Positions 36,100 through 40,862 of a stretch of DNA of 41,547 nt are shown one piece after another (positions within the stretch are counted from its first letter, which is position 1; every line of letters begins with the position of its first letter). The notes under the pieces were generated by a model that worked only from the letters and a program-made list of their open reading frames with translations, ran no database searches and had not been told where the DNA came from. A program made the position numbers and the translations under genes. This stretch comes from a virus (lineage: Duplodnaviria > Heunggongvirae > Uroviricota > Caudoviricetes), in the IMG/VR virus record IMGVR_UViG_2529292882_000020, positions 1 to 41,547 of that record. One strand, 5' to 3'.

Positions 36100-36654
36100 A
36101 TGCTTATTGGCTATGTACGCGTATCAACAAATGACCAGAACACCGATCTACAACGTAATGCGTTGAACTGTGCAGGATGTGAGCTGATTTTTGAAGACAA
36201 GATAAGCGGTACAAAGTCCGACAGACCAGGACTGAAAAAGCTGCTCAGGACATTATCGGCAGGTGACACGCTGGTGGTCTGGAAACTGGACCGACTGGGA
36301 CGCAGTATGCGGCATCTTGTCGTGCTGGTGGAGGAGTTGCGCGAACGAGGCATCAACTTTCGTAGTCTGACGGATTCAATTGATACCAGTACCCCAATGG
36401 GGCGCTTTTTCTTTCATGTGATGGGTGCCCTGGCTGAAATGGAGCGTGAACTGATTGTTGAACGAACAAAAGCTGGACTGGAAGCAGCTCGCGCACAGGG
36501 ACGAATTGGTGGACGTCGCCCCAAACTTACACCAGAACAATGGGAGCAGGCTGGACGATTAATTGCATCAGGCGTTCCTCGCCAGAAGGTGGCGATCATC
36601 TATGATGTTGGTATATCGACACTGTATAAGAAGTTTCCGGTCGGAGATAAATGA
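36100..36654 (+). CDS. pin: serine DNA invertase (Hin/Gin/Pin family)
   Basis: MLIGYVRVSTNDQNTDLQ... catalytic Ser in YVRVST; C-terminal HTH; GAGGGA RBS. Confidence 0.9.
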   Translation: MLIGYVRVSTNDQNTDLQRNALNCAGCELIFEDKISGTKSDRPGLKKLLRTLSAGDTLVVWKLDRLGRSMRHLVVLVEELRERGINFRSLTDSIDTSTPMGRFFFHVMGALAEMERELIVERTKAGLEAARAQGRIGGRRPKLTPEQWEQAGRLIASGVPRQKVAIIYDVGISTLYKKFPVGDK

Positions 36655-36694
36655 AACCGTAGCACGTCGTATGCAAGAAGATCGTGCTGCGGTT
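36653..36694. repeat. cassette-boundary hairpin repeat, copy A
   Basis: GAAACCGTAGCACGTCGTATGCAAGAAGATCGTGCTGCGGTT; starts inside the pin stop codon. Confidence 0.7.
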
Positions 36695-36714
36695 TATGCT
36701 TATCACTTAAAGAC

Positions 36715-37488
36715 TCAAAAATTAGGTGAGTAACGGACCGGGGACATAGCTCCTTTTTTTCTTAATTCATCTGGTATTTTTTTTCCAAGATAAAGATTTG
36801 CTATTTCAGGTGGGGCTTCTCGACCTTCAAAACCATAGCGAGAACTTTGTGTTGCCTCAAAGTCCGGATCCTCGTCCCAGTATTTCATCGTAGGGAAATT
36901 TTCACGTGTTGATTTGAGCCATTTATCAGCAATGAAAACCCCTCGAACGATCCCCCTTACAGTAGCAAGAATGACTTCTGCTTGGCTGGCGCGAGAGACA
37001 TTAATGCGCCAGCTAAATCGAACCGCATCATAAAGCTCTGAATCCTTTGCACTTCTGTTAACGGAAATCATTAATGCTTTATGATGAAATGTTATGGTTT
37101 CGGGTTGATATGTTGCTATCAACTCTTTGACATGCGCGGCGCCGAATTCATTGCTGCCAGCACCATTCATGATATTCGTTAACCCAGGGTAGGCATCAAT
37201 AAGTGCTGCTTCAACTTCGTACGCCGTCTTTTCATCAGTCATTCCGTGTCGATGGATGACATGGATAACCTCAAGTCCTGCTAACCTTATTTCTCTAATT
37301 TGCTTTAGCTTGTTGCTCAGTAACTCGTCATCATCAGTCGCTGCCACTTCACCGCGCATATGGGCAAATACGCGGTTACCTTTGCCTTTCCCTACATAGA
37401 AGGTGCTTCCGTCCCTCGGATCAATCAATCGGTATACATACCAGCCAAGGTGTTCAATTACTCCAGAAGGAAACTCAGTAATATCCAT
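36715..37488 (-). CDS. GIY-YIG nuclease-domain protein with uncharacterised C-terminal domain (257 aa)
   Basis: [30 protein letters not shown] (GIY-YIG with conserved Arg); ATG at 37488; AT-rich. Confidence 0.6.
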
Positions 37489-37674
37489 TTTGCAATATCT
37501 ATGAATTATTTGTGAGACGTATATTAATGAACATTGCAAGGGCTCACAACCAGTAGTGTTGAGAAAAACATCGGAGAAATGAGGCTAAGCCTTTGAATTT
37601 ACATAGTACAAAAAAGATACTTTTCCTCATAATGTGAGCTAATTTTATGTTTCGTTTGATGATTGGACCGGTCT

Positions 37675-37700
37675 CGAAAACCGTAGGCACGTAGTATGCG
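37675..37700. repeat. cassette-boundary repeat, partial copy C (left arm only)
   Basis: CGAAAACCGTAGGCACGTAGTATGCG, about 22/26 match to the left half of copies A and B. Confidence 0.5.
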
Positions 37701-37891
37701 TTAATTTATGAACAAACTACTTGTCTGCTGTTTTTCTGTCATTAGTCGTATATAGAATAATTCTCTATGCCTAACAAAGCATCACCAGTGCTAGATTACG
37801 TTGTAGTCACTGTTTAAATATCCAGATAAAACATTTCCTTCTGGGTTGAATGAGTGATAGAGTTTCACCCATTAGACCCCTTGGAGGAATT

Positions 37892-39325
37892 ATGTCTGAA
37901 TTTGAAGTGTTGGCACAGCATCTGCTGAAGGAAGCCGAGGCGGAAGAAAAGCTGCGACAGGAAAATGATAAAAAGCTTATCGAGAAAGTGCTGGAAATCT
38001 ATGATCAGAAGTATGTGGCTGAATTACTGAGAAAAGTCGGAAAAAATGAGTGGAGCCGTGAAACCATCAACCGCTGGATTAATGGCAAGTGTTTACCAAA
38101 ATCGTTGACTTCAGTAGAAGAGTCTCTTCTGCGTAAGATGCTACCAGAACCACCTGCAAACCATCCGGAATATGCTTTCCGCTTCATTGACTTATTTGCT
38201 GGAATTGGAGGGATACGGAAAGGTTTTGAGGCCATTGGAGGCCAGTGTGTTTTTACCAGTGAATGGAATAAAGATGCTGTGCGTACATACAAGGCCAACT
38301 GGTTTAACGATGAACAGGTGCATAAATTCAATCTCGATATTCGGGAAGTCACGCTGAGTGATAAAACCGATGTATTGGAAACGGATGCTTATGCATATAT
38401 TGATGAGCATGTGCCGGATCATGATGTGCTTCTTGCGGGGTTCCCGTGCCAGCCATTTAGCCTTGCTGGTGTTAGTAAGAAAAACTCACTTGGTCGTGCG
38501 CATGGTTTTGAATGTGAAGCACAAGGAACACTTTTTTTTGACGTGGCACGTATTATACGAGCAAAAAAACCGGCAATTTTTGTGCTGGAAAATGTCAAAA
38601 ATCTGAAGAGCCATGATAAGGGTAAAACTTTCAAAGTCATTATGGAGACCCTTGACGAGCTGGGCTACGAAGTTGCCGATGCTGCAGAAATGGGAAAAAA
38701 CGATCCAAAGATTATCGATGGGAAGCATTTTTTGCCTCAGCATCGTGAACGCATTGTTCTGGTCGGATTTAGACGAGATCTGAATATTCACAAGGGGTTT
38801 ACCTTGCGTGATATCAGTCGTTTTTATCCGGAACACCGCCCATCATTTGGTGAATTGCTGGAGCCTGTAGTCGACAGTAAATATATACTTACGCCAAAAC
38901 TATGGGAGTACCTTTATAACTACGCCAAAAAGCATGCAGCCAAGGGGAATGGTTTTGGCTTTGGGTTGGTCAATCCTGAGAATAAGGAAAGCATTGCACG
39001 CACACTTTCTGCCAGATATCACAAAGACGGATCAGAAATTCTTATTGATCGTGGTTGGGATATGGCAACGGGAGAGGCTGACTTTATGAATGAGAGTAAC
39101 CAGGCTCGTCGACCACGCAGGCTGACTCCCCGAGAGTGCGCACGCCTTATGGGGTTTGAAAAACCTGGAGGGAAACCATTCCGTATTCCGGTTTCAGATA
39201 CTCAGTCATATCGGCAGTTCGGTAACTCCGTTGTGGTGCCAGTATTTGAAGCCGTTGCCAGACTTCTGGAACCCTATATCCTCAAAGCTGTTTCTGCTGA
39301 TGCTGGTAAGACTGGGCAGCCTTGA
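37892..39325 (+). CDS. DNA cytosine-5 methyltransferase, EcoRII/Dcm type (CCWGG predicted)
   Basis: 477 aa from ATG 37892 (GGAGG RBS); [45 protein letters not shown] motifs. Confidence 0.85.
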
Positions 39326-39359
39326 GAACACCTCCCGGCCTTTTAAGCCGGGAGTCAGC

Positions 39360-40574
39360 CTATGATAGTTCAGCGTAAAGTTCTATCAGCTCAGTAATGA
39401 ATGCTCCGAGCGTTATTAATTCTTCTCTAACTGCTTCTGGGTATTTTTTATGTAAAGTTGATGGTACAACGAGTCTGACACCCGCATCTTTCATTTCTCG
39501 GTATTGTGCTGAAGAAACACCTTCTTGCAGCGTAAATAAATGTACCTGATGGATTTTATCTGCTTCATTCAGTATCTGACGCCAGCGATCTTTGCAGGTG
39601 GTCTTTACTGCCAGCATACGTAAGTTTTCTACAGGAAATTCAACGTTATGATATGCCTCTGCTGAAGGAAACAGGAAATCTGGTTTTTTATTACCTTCAG
39701 TAACTGCCTGAGTGGAGAAATGCCGTAGTCCGTGCTCGATAAAAAGCTTCTCTAGGTGAAGTTCAAGTGATTTACCTGCCCTTGATTTACGTCGATTACT
39801 GACAGAGTTGGCTAATGCAATAAACTCATCTACAGAATCGAATCCTTTCTTAATAATATCAAGAACATGTAATTCCTCGACGAGTAGAAAAATATCATAC
39901 TCGACACGCCGACGGTCAATCAGTTGCTCATCTGGATCCTTGGAGTTTTTAGCATAATGGCCAGCAGCATATTGAATAATTTCGTTTCCAGAAGGAAAAC
40001 GCTTCTTCCAGTCTTCAGGAATAACATATTTATGATTTACTGGAGTTTGCTGAAGAGACAATCCGCCCAAAATTTGTCCGGCAGGGCCGGAAATTAGGGT
40101 TCCAGGTATGATTTCGCCAATAGCAGACTCGATGATATCCTCTTCATCGGGATTGACGCAGACCCATATATCTACCTCGGAACAGTCAGTGTTCTGTTCG
40201 TTTAACCTGAAAGCAAGAATTGTGAGGGCTCCTGTATTTTCAGGGTTCTGTAATGGACTTCCTCTCCCCCAGCGCGTAATTCTTTTTTCGTTTCGGGTCT
40301 TACCAAAATAACGGTTGTTGTAATAAATTGCGCGTGCTTGGGTATCAGGGCAATCATGGGATGATACATGCGCAGTAAGGAAGACTGAAGGGTTCAGTTC
40401 GCGAGTATGATTGATAGATGGAAAAAGCTTTTCAACGATATTTGAGGGGATATAAAGTCCGACCTGATGGCCACCTGTTGCGCCTGTGTCGTTTGCAGAA
40501 AGACGTTTGATGTAGATAAAGTAATTCCCGCTTGCGATATCAAGCAGCCAGTTATGAAAAACCGACATATACAT
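39360..40574 (-). CDS. EcoRII-like type IIE restriction endonuclease
   Basis: 404 aa; near-collinear with R.EcoRII as recalled (YIKRLSANDTGATGGHQVGLYIP...MLAVKTTCKDRWRQILNEADKI); convergent with the methylase. Confidence 0.85.
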   Translation of the reverse strand: MYMSVFHNWLLDIASGNYFIYIKRLSANDTGATGGHQVGLYIPSNIVEKLFPSINHTRELNPSVFLTAHVSSHDCPDTQARAIYYNNRYFGKTRNEKRITRWGRGSPLQNPENTGALTILAFRLNEQNTDCSEVDIWVCVNPDEEDIIESAIGEIIPGTLISGPAGQILGGLSLQQTPVNHKYVIPEDWKKRFPSGNEIIQYAAGHYAKNSKDPDEQLIDRRRVEYDIFLLVEELHVLDIIKKGFDSVDEFIALANSVSNRRKSRAGKSLELHLEKLFIEHGLRHFSTQAVTEGNKKPDFLFPSAEAYHNVEFPVENLRMLAVKTTCKDRWRQILNEADKIHQVHLFTLQEGVSSAQYREMKDAGVRLVVPSTLHKKYPEAVREELITLGAFITELIELYAELS

Positions 40575-40641
40575 CCCTTTGTTAACATACAGTCAGGGTT
40601 AACATTTTTCCATAGTTATAGATAAGCGGCTAGGAACTTAA

Positions 40642-40676
40642 GGGAAAAACAAAAAGCCCGCATAAGCGGGCTTTTG
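40642..40676 (-). terminator. strong intrinsic terminator on minus strand (AGCCCGC ttat GCGGGCT + TTTTTGTTTTT), weaker on plus strand
   Basis: perfect 7-bp GC stem; lies upstream of the R gene start. Confidence 0.65.
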
Positions 40677-40822
40677 TGTCACTCGAGAGCCGCGGCTCCT
40701 TTGCGTATCCTTTTTTGTCTCCTCACCGTCTGGTCGGTGTCCTGCTGAGACTGCTAACTTCCTGTTTTTGTTGGTGTTGTCCTTACACCGTCCAATCATG
40801 ATTGGTGGAGCTGGCGGGAGTT

Positions 40823-40862
40823 GAAACCGCAGCCACGTCGTATGCAAGAACGTGCTGCGGTT
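40823..40862. repeat. cassette-boundary hairpin repeat, copy B
   Basis: GAAACCGCAGCCACGTCGTATGCAAGAACGTGCTGCGGTT; about 90% identical to copy A. Confidence 0.7.

Follow-up and report, generated by a model that had tools for sequence, protein, structure and literature searches.

A hairpin-bordered defence slot behind the tail-fibre genes of an Escherichia coli prophage, probably stacked from the cargo arms of several phage lineages

The DNA studied here, called the window, is the whole 41,547-nt stretch of IMG/VR virus record IMGVR_UViG_2529292882_000020 (Caudoviricetes), a prophage integrated in thrW of Escherichia coli. Our subject is the region behind its tail-fibre invertase gene pinE, where defence genes are separated by copies of a hairpin repeat of about 40 bp, which we call H. 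The DNA from the pin stop codon to the right attachment site (attR) in thrW would be the equivalent of the lambda b region, with defence genes that are probably expressed in the lysogen. We observed its anatomy, two fossil attachment (att) cores of other specificities within it, intermediate stages that survive in other prophages, and gene content that varies between H copies among relatives. Taken together, these observations make it probable that this non-essential right arm has been stacked head to tail from the cargo arms of three phage lineages.

In the proposed stack, each arm would run from an H copy to the attachment core of its own lineage (Table 1). Arm X would consist of H copy A, the gene of the GIY-YIG nuclease CMoRE and a core from the anticodon loop of serU. 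Arm W would start at H copy C and comprise a conserved spacer (Y) and a dinI-like gene, both since deleted, the genes for the EcoRII methyltransferase and endonuclease, a copy of the ssrA 3' trailer and a core from the ssrA T loop. Arm Z would comprise H copy B, Y, an open reading frame (ORF) of 156 amino acids (a.a.), a PD-T7-1-like gene and the thrW attR. The modules look like captured cargo arms and not like autonomous cassettes, because their right ends are serU and ssrA fossil cores. A preliminary description of this DNA had proposed exchangeable cassettes rather than a single insertion. As an observation that description is confirmed, and its interpretation is partly supported: the modules are real and exchangeable, but H is not a dedicated cassette site, since it also occurs without cargo (in HK97) and the modules end in fossil att cores.

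Fossil attachment cores at the ends of the arms

The ssrA trailer and core of the window have clear counterparts elsewhere. In K-12 the matching DNA downstream of ssrA sits between ypjA and the end of CP4-57. In strain F8 the same restriction–modification (R-M) genes, trailer and core run into an intact ssrA gene, and this block forms the right end of a lambdoid prophage at ssrA; in phage LLS trailer plus core are annotated as 'tmRNA pseudogene / attP'. Real attP sites of the ssrA type (LLS and F8) consist of trailer and core without H. The integrases of LLS and F8 are 86% identical to each other, and the thrW-type integrase of the window is 25–27% identical to those of the ssrA type.

At the position of the serU core, other prophages continue into the whole serU 3' part and its native flank, and behind the CMoRE gene 417 complete genomes have the entire serU 3' part with ∼100–130 nt of serU native flank. 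We considered these junctions as prophages integrated at serU and rejected that assignment, as the junction in H10407 (NC_017633.1, 48240–49560; the one genome inspected) lies inside a thrW prophage, where pin, H and the CMoRE gene are followed by the serU 3' part with ∼130 nt of flank and then by a degenerate thrW attR. The H10407 junction is captured bacterial DNA, the signature of aberrant excision of a phage from serU, where this DNA must have been acquired.

The window has no second serU or ssrA core and no cognate integrase beside either core; the two cores are therefore fossils, and the active pair is that of thrW. The thrW attR, a 40-nt repeat of the thrW 3' part, is seen ∼3.1 kb past the window end (window-equivalent position 44627) in L001, a locus identical to the window from which the RefSeq annotation was taken; a second thrW core was not found within the window. 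In another locus (L002) we considered the order 150 nt, core, H, Y, hypothetical gene, integrase gene as a live ssrA attP and rejected it, as the integrase is thrW-like (56% identical to that of the window) and does not resemble the ssrA type.

Both cores meet H at one point, its 5' edge (...CTCGAAAACCG joined to TAG... and ...GAGTTGAA joined to ACCGCAG...). The breakpoints lie inside the serU anticodon loop and the ssrA T loop, with the microhomology GAAACCG at both joints. Integrases that use tRNA genes canonically cross over in anticodon and T loops (10.1101/2020.11.02.365908).

Graded series of related prophages

We mapped the window against ∼130 loci, which fall into a graded series. The empty order pin–H–Y is found in L024, L118 and HK97. 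At least nine loci have pin or tfa, then H, CMoRE and the serU core joined to H–Y. Four loci (L003, which is strain F8, L054, L069 and L081) have H, CMoRE and the serU core joined to H, followed by further cargo, the trailer, the core and an intact ssrA; these intermediates are ssrA-integrated prophages that already carry a serU-type arm. The full stack, ending in the ssrA core joined to H–Y, is present in the window and in about 10 loci among the matches listed, which include L001, L002, L012, L058 and L088 and, with other cargo, L005, L026 and L052. In L053 an EcoRII arm without the GIY-YIG gene comes after a left arm of another kind, with the joint again at this serU core.

The preliminary description had asked whether gene content varies between conserved repeat copies in relatives, and its own test, by which uniform content would have counted against it, does not refute it. 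We found at least six contents between consecutive H copies, besides the empty form: CMoRE alone; CMoRE with EcoRII; a pair of helix–turn–helix (HTH) and ImmA/IrrE genes; this pair with a Bro-N protein; a 222-a.a. methyltransferase with a duplicated tfa 3' end; and a 419-a.a. protein. At least 80% of the CMoRE and EcoRII block is present in 77 complete genomes. Whether it stands after lambda-type tails (L002 and F8) or after the Mu-like tail of the window, the block is 98–99% identical, which the proposed exchange of arms between prophages would explain.

The commonest unit between H copies in the sample is ∼1016 bp long (L021, L023 and ∼26 other IMG/VR loci among the matches listed) and consists of the gene of the 222-a.a. 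protein, which resembles S-adenosylmethionine-dependent methyltransferases, and the duplicated tfa 3' end; because the tfa 3' end is duplicated as well, the duplication in this unit spans the tfa end and H, not H alone. The 419-a.a. protein, encoded between two hairpins in E. coli EC09 (L005, 1768–3000), has no family match. The same locus carries an AbiTii-family gene (6063–6983) after its last H–Y and a full-length Rfam IS009 match (1398–1596, 227 bits) inside a tail-fibre-assembly gene by the slot.

The single hairpin of L024 and L118 is an exact chimera of the left part of A and the right part of B. It could be the product of homologous recombination between A and B that deleted the cargo, or equally the ancestral form.

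Spacer Y and the truncated copy C

Among the IMG/VR matches listed, H is usually followed by Y (GGCTGGTGAACTTTCGATAGTGCGAG...), and Y by an 82-a.a. DinI-family gene on the opposite strand; because this convergent gene follows it, Y is the 3' untranslated region of the dinI-like gene. HK97 carries an H–Y unit (20941–21040) identical to that of copy B, in the order pin-remnant, H, Y, sib, attP and int, without cargo.

Copy C of the window has lost this arrangement. Several loci, among them L016, L020, L026, L027 and L052, have a full H and Y where the window has C. In L005 and L026, Y is followed by the 3' end of dinI, and a homologous sequence (TTAATTTATGAACAAAC...) adjoins C on its right in the window; in L005, L026 and L052 the sequence after Y is the C-terminus of the DinI-like ORF. 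What is gone from the window at this position is therefore the 3' half of H together with Y and most of dinI, apparently through a deletion between short ACGTNGTAT/ACGTAT repeats. The preliminary description had reported three hairpin copies; all three are there, but C is a truncated 5' half and not a degenerate full copy.

The hairpin H

H is a low-copy, phage-specific conserved stem-loop that closes the late operon. Copies A and B are 89% identical over 41–43 nt and have in common an exact 17-mer that is unique to them within the window, and B and C match the 21-nt degenerate pattern AACCGYAGNNACGTNGTATGC with 0 mismatches (0.00 expected in shuffled sequences). The folding energy is -25.8 kcal/mol for A (z -5.5) and -20 to -22 kcal/mol for B (z -1.8 to -2.8), each with a stem of 12–13 bp; C, with its 5' half only, has no fold (z +1.0). 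Among 27 sequence variants, pairing in the stem stands at 95%, three pairs show compensatory changes (on both sides), and the sequence is 84% conserved, with the ends GAAACCG ... CGGTTKG.

H occurs in 5114 out of 5426 complete E. coli genomes (94%), with a median of 2 and a range of 1–8 copies (∼12 800 sites in all). Among 100 044 species representatives it was found only in Escherichia and in two short contigs (metagenome-assembled genomes of Bacillota and Lachnospiraceae), which we suspect to be mis-binned. An exact scan of IMG/VR with the H pattern gave at least 120 stretches, most of them short loci. Among the matches listed, H lies directly 3' of a stop codon, which belongs to pinE, to a divergent pin or to one of two types of tfa; the pinE stop codon TGA of the window overlaps the first bases of copy A. 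At every H locus that we inspected the surrounding DNA is prophage, and H comes right behind tfa, pin or an att fossil. Phages without pin can also have H behind tfa, and the Rac prophage of K-12 contains it.

With gathering thresholds, an Rfam search of the window found the tRNA alone, and with relaxed thresholds the one informative match was a partial one to CssrB (RF02799), a Shigella small RNA, whose model is matched at its 3' end by both A and B (24.5 bits; the gathering score is 76). As the match covers the hairpin only (the last ∼40 positions) and the rest of the 180-nt model is absent, CssrB is not encoded in the window. That the CssrB model ends in H suggests that transcripts end there. 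Most simply, H would be a terminator that works in both directions, or a 3'-end hairpin, separating the late operon from the cargo or dinI-like gene that converges on it.

Exchange of arms and alternative explanations

Under the stacked-arm reading, H (∼40 bp), Y, the ends of late genes and the att fossils would supply short homologies, and phage or host recombination would use them to swap, add and delete arms between co-resident prophages. The joints between cores and H could be the work of a donor integrase for which the 5' edge of H was a secondary attachment site, or of microhomology joining at GAAACCG; with an integrase, homologous deletion of the donor backbone between the late genes of the two phages would follow. 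The position of the breakpoints in canonical loops favours the integrase.

Several observations weigh against the stacked-arm reading. There are prophages with cargo in the slot but without H, namely e14 of K-12, in which H was expected after pinE and is absent, LLS, and the E2863 phage (L131), a lambdoid prophage at the real serU of E. coli E2863 with the type III effector gene nleC (1287–2273) between its tail-fibre genes and attR. We found no prophage with the GIY arm at the real serU locus, and lineage X is deduced from the fossils and the nleC-carrying serU prophage, because the H10407 junctions sit in a thrW prophage. Each type of joint has one breakpoint in all its copies, so each may descend from one ancient event. 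The IMG/VR counts are not frequencies, because the stretches were chosen by the H pattern. A simple terminator scan did not call H, whose loop is 11–16 nt long and whose U tract is weak (near A, GGUUUCAUUUAU on the minus strand and GGUUUAUGCUUAU on the plus strand).

A more specific mechanism for the joints would make the 5' edge of H a landing pad, a pseudo-attB that mimics the anticodon and T loops of tRNAs and at which the unrelated integrases of tRNA and tmRNA phages would repeatedly recombine their attP sites; late-gene recombination would then delete the donor backbone, and the att-side cargo arm of the donor would stay. Both donor breakpoints are exactly in the canonical crossover loops, the serU and ssrA joints hit the same target point, and the target (GAAAAACCGCAG or TGAAACCGYAG) resembles the cores of serU (CGAAAACCGGAG) and ssrA (TTGAACCCGCG). 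Moreover, the predicted intermediate exists, as an ssrA-integrated phage already with the serU-type arm, and integrases that target prophage late regions are known (PMC10111431). However, there are just two types of joint with one breakpoint each, possibly two single events, a microhomology of 8–10 nt alone can explain their position, no reciprocal joint (late gene joined to core, P' arm and int) was seen, and the serU arm of H10407 was stacked without using H. We hold repeated use of such a pad to be a tentative and rather unlikely account. Much less credible is an integron-like system, in which H would be an attC-like folded site and Pin or a tyrosine integrase would move single cassettes. 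Cargo is indeed bounded by direct copies of an imperfect hairpin, the recombinase gene pin adjoins, and the hairpin of the empty site is the A-left/B-right chimera. attC sites, however, are conserved in structure and not in sequence and have R''/L''/L'/R' boxes (RYYYAAC ... GTTRRRY), whereas H is conserved in sequence and lacks RYYYAAC/GTTRRRY boxes. There is no intI or attI, and the sole tyrosine recombinase of the window, the phage integrase, scores far under the cutoffs for integron integrases. The right ends of the units are att fossils or late-gene remnants and not H, A and B are 11% diverged, and H follows tfa also in pin-less phages. Nor does H look like a site for Pin. A gix or pix site is 26 bp long, with two 12-bp half-sites around a 2-bp core, and inverted pairs of such sites flank the invertible segment; in H the AAACC and GGTTT elements are ∼30 nt apart, which does not make a serine-invertase crossover site, and the pix-like site of Pin (∼36020–36050), beside the invertible tail-fibre segment, is unrelated to H. 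Lacking intI and the features of attC, the integron-like reading was rejected as very improbable.

Two further explanations have, in our judgement, next to no chance of being right. One is a single 4.2-kb mobile insertion, transposon-like or by GIY-YIG homing, in the course of which the hairpin target was duplicated. In its favour, the whole of 36695–40822 is flanked by direct repeats, and GIY-YIG enzymes include homing endonucleases (a weak PHROG match, E-value 0.002). But separate occurrences are known of the GIY-YIG gene alone, of the R-M pair without it (L053) and of other cargos, no transposase is present, and 11% divergence in a 40-bp 'duplication' is unlike a transposition target duplication; A and B have 89% identity against 99% conservation of the cargo and are therefore no recent target duplication. 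Homing was rejected because the protein is CMoRE, a characterised modification-dependent defence nuclease, and the modules are found separately. The other explanation, with as little to recommend it, is that H is a dispersed repeat of the repetitive extragenic palindromic (REP) or miniature inverted-repeat transposable element type that came to lie at cargo boundaries by coincidence. As a palindromic 40-mer in most E. coli genomes H fits this description, but REP palindromes and the bacterial interspersed mosaic elements built around them occur in hundreds of copies per genome in chromosomal intergenic regions, whereas H has 1–8 copies, is confined to Escherichia and was in prophage DNA after tfa, pin or an att fossil at all inspected loci. 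It was rejected on copy number and location; H is not the ubiquitous REP-type element that would have counted against the preliminary description.

Defence genes in the slot

The preliminary description had placed a GIY-YIG gene and an EcoRII-like R-M pair behind pin and had called the region a defence slot. Coordinates and content of these genes were reproduced, and the region is a defence slot, with PD-T4-3/CMoRE and EcoRII R-M, to which a PD-T7-1-like gene split by IS911 past the window end can be added.

The product of the GIY-YIG gene matches the PADLOC profile PD-T4-3 over its full length (positions 1–255 of 256, E-value 2.4e-140) and is near-identical to PDB entry 9U75 (residues 6–262, E-value 3.7e-172), so that both the N-terminal GIY-YIG domain and the C-terminal sensing domain are covered. 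CMoRE is a type IV endonuclease that degrades DNA with 5-hydroxymethylcytosine (5hmC) or glucosyl-5hmC and protects against T-even phages, and a GIYxY-YIG motif with Y17, Y19 and Y31 has been described for it (PMC12923530). This motif is present in our translation (G15 W16 Y17 V18 Y19 R20 ... F30 Y31 V32 G33). Activity in the native host was shown for a near-identical protein (10.1101/2024.12.20.629700). By these similarities the protein of the window is identified as PD-T4-3/CMoRE, and cleavage of 5hmC and glucosyl-5hmC DNA is predicted for it, carried over from the near-identical proteins.

The methyltransferase and endonuclease genes of the R-M pair are convergent, with 34 nt between their stop codons. 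With an endonuclease that has an N-terminal effector domain and a C-terminal catalytic domain, and an adjacent C5 methylase, the pair is essentially EcoRII. EcoRII destroys unmethylated CCWGG DNA and would do so here, and CMoRE would destroy hmC-containing T-even DNA. The two systems should be compatible, because the adjacent methylase makes 5-methylcytosine, which CMoRE is not reported to cut.

The first ORF of the third arm (156 a.a.) had no match in Pfam, PADLOC, PHROG or NCBIfam; it also follows the ssrA core joined to H–Y in L012 and L018. Past the window end, two ORFs annotated as 'hypothetical' flank IS911 (L001 12027–12542 and 13693–14304; window-equivalent ∼42045–44322) and match consecutive parts of the PD-T7-1 profile (142–276 and 278–447 of 452). 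They are the two halves of a PD-T7-1-like gene, the third defence gene of the right arm, disrupted by IS911. PD-T4-3 and PD-T7-1 both come from prophage-borne systems of an E. coli pangenome screen (Vassallo et al. 2022).

Setting in the prophage

The prophage is integrated at tRNA-Thr(CGU) (thrW, 1369–1444), which is directly followed by the tyrosine integrase gene (1459–2622, minus strand). Its late region closes with an e14-like tail module (baseplate J, YmfQ, a gp53-like fibre and tfa), an invertible segment and pinE. The G+C fraction is ∼0.52–0.60 in the phage body and falls to 0.37–0.45 downstream of pin, in agreement with the AT-richness noted in the preliminary description.

Two features elsewhere in the window may be mentioned. 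Six iteron-like 15-nt direct repeats (TCAAAATCTGACCCG and variants) at 8625–8747, inside the ORF 8337–9278, are probably the phage replication origin within the initiator gene. A perfect 39-nt tandem duplication is found at 12099–12176.

Table 1. Features of the right arm of the prophage (positions in the window; a dot marks features without a strand)
Feature	Position	Strand	Basis
pinE serine invertase, last gene of tail-fibre module	36100–36654	+	Pfam Resolvase and HTH_7; RefSeq annotation of L001
Hairpin H, copy A, full	36653–36695	.	Between convergent pinE and CMoRE genes; sequence and fold
PD-T4-3/CMoRE, predicted GIY-YIG type IV restriction endonuclease, 257 a.a.	36715–37488	-	PADLOC, PDB, Pfam LEM-3_GIY-YIG
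Promoter/upstream region travelling with CMoRE gene	37489–37664	-	Co-conserved in every GIY-bearing locus
serU att core, 19 nt, anticodon arm of tRNA-Ser(CGA) (GGACCGGTCTCGAAAACCG)	37665–37683	+	Exact match to serU in L130 (ARAGORN)
Hairpin H, copy C, 5' half only	37676–37700	.	Joined to serU core; sequence
Remnant of dinI-like gene 3' end, ∼45 nt (limits approximate)	37700–37745	-	Homology to sequence after Y in L005, L026 and L052
Dcm/M.EcoRII-type C5 cytosine methyltransferase	37892–39325	+	Pfam DNA_methylase PF00145 and DNA_meth_N PF18284; PADLOC MTase_II, E-value 3.8e-230
EcoRII restriction endonuclease (type IIE)	39360–40568	-	EcoRII-N PF09217 and EcoRII-C PF09019; PDB 1NA6, E-value 1.3e-242, 401 residues
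ssrA 3' trailer copy	40648–40802	-	∼91% identical to DNA downstream of ssrA in ∼5000 E. coli genomes; terminator hairpin at 40652–40675 (terminator scan)
ssrA att core, last 23 nt (T loop to CCA), reverse complement	40803–40825	-	Identical to ssrA as annotated in strain F8
Hairpin H, copy B, full	40823–40862	.	5' edge joined to ssrA core; sequence and fold
Y, conserved spacer after H	40863–41010	.	Block common to 77 genomes ends at ∼41003–41017
ORF, 156 a.a., first gene of third arm	41077–41547	+	No profile match

Implications

Both defence systems in the slot are already characterised; the genes are known, and nothing changes about what the defences do. What the analysis adds is a sequence-defined border, made of H, Y and dead att cores, for a cargo slot behind the tail-fibre genes that is present in most E. 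coli genomes, and surviving intermediates that show whole cargo arms moving between phages with different integration sites. Limited literature searches, with incomplete coverage, found no prior description of the hairpin boundary or of stacked att fossils; as far as they show, the stacked-arm architecture with its surviving intermediates is undescribed, a modest novelty built from known genes.

It can now be tested whether short conserved hairpins act as homology anchors that spread defence genes between unrelated phages, and whether phage integrases add to phage–phage mosaicism via secondary sites. If the 5' edge of H were indeed a landing pad, Escherichia prophages would have a general route by which defence and virulence genes accumulate in an ordered array, no dedicated cassette integrase being needed. 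H plus Y is also a cheap anchor for mining new cargo, and several unannotated genes have already been found in the slot.

Comparison with known systems

Non-essential cargo between tail-fibre genes and att is familiar from the lambda b region and from 'morons', and has reportedly been treated by Hendrix and, in 2006, by Tobe and colleagues as morons or as exchangeable effector loci of lambdoid prophages of enterohaemorrhagic E. coli. The window has its cargo in the same place, as has the E2863 serU prophage, whose cargo nleC serves virulence and not defence; however, a hairpin boundary and stacked att-proximal arms are absent from the descriptions that we found, and the nleC arm of E2863 has no H. 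The e14 prophage of K-12 is close in another respect, as it shares the tail and invertase module of the window (baseplate J, YmfQ, gp53-like, tfa and pinE) and carries mcrA, for another type IV enzyme, between pinE and attR. The parallel with e14 drawn in the preliminary description thus stands for the position of the cargo but not for the repeat: e14 has one gene (for McrA, an HNH protein), integrates in icd, and lacks H, Y and fossil att cores. Integron arrays resemble the window in having tandem cargo split by imperfect hairpin repeats beside a recombinase gene, but the window has no IntI, attI or attC boxes, and its units end in tRNA and tmRNA att fossils.

The hotspots of P2 and P4 (Rousset et al. 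2022, PMC9122126) also hold variable anti-phage cargo at a fixed site between conserved phage genes. The slot of the window differs from these: it is located behind the tail-fibre and invertase genes, in phages that are lambdoid or have Mu-like tails, a hairpin delimits it on the left, and inside it the units are separated by dead att cores of other integration specificities. The tyrosine integrases of helper-embedded phage-inducible chromosomal islands have their sites within the late regions of prophages (Tommasini, Mageeney and Williams 2023, PMC10111431). These islands are intact satellites with their own integrase within late genes, whereas the window has cargo arms only, bounded by dead att cores and located downstream of the late genes.

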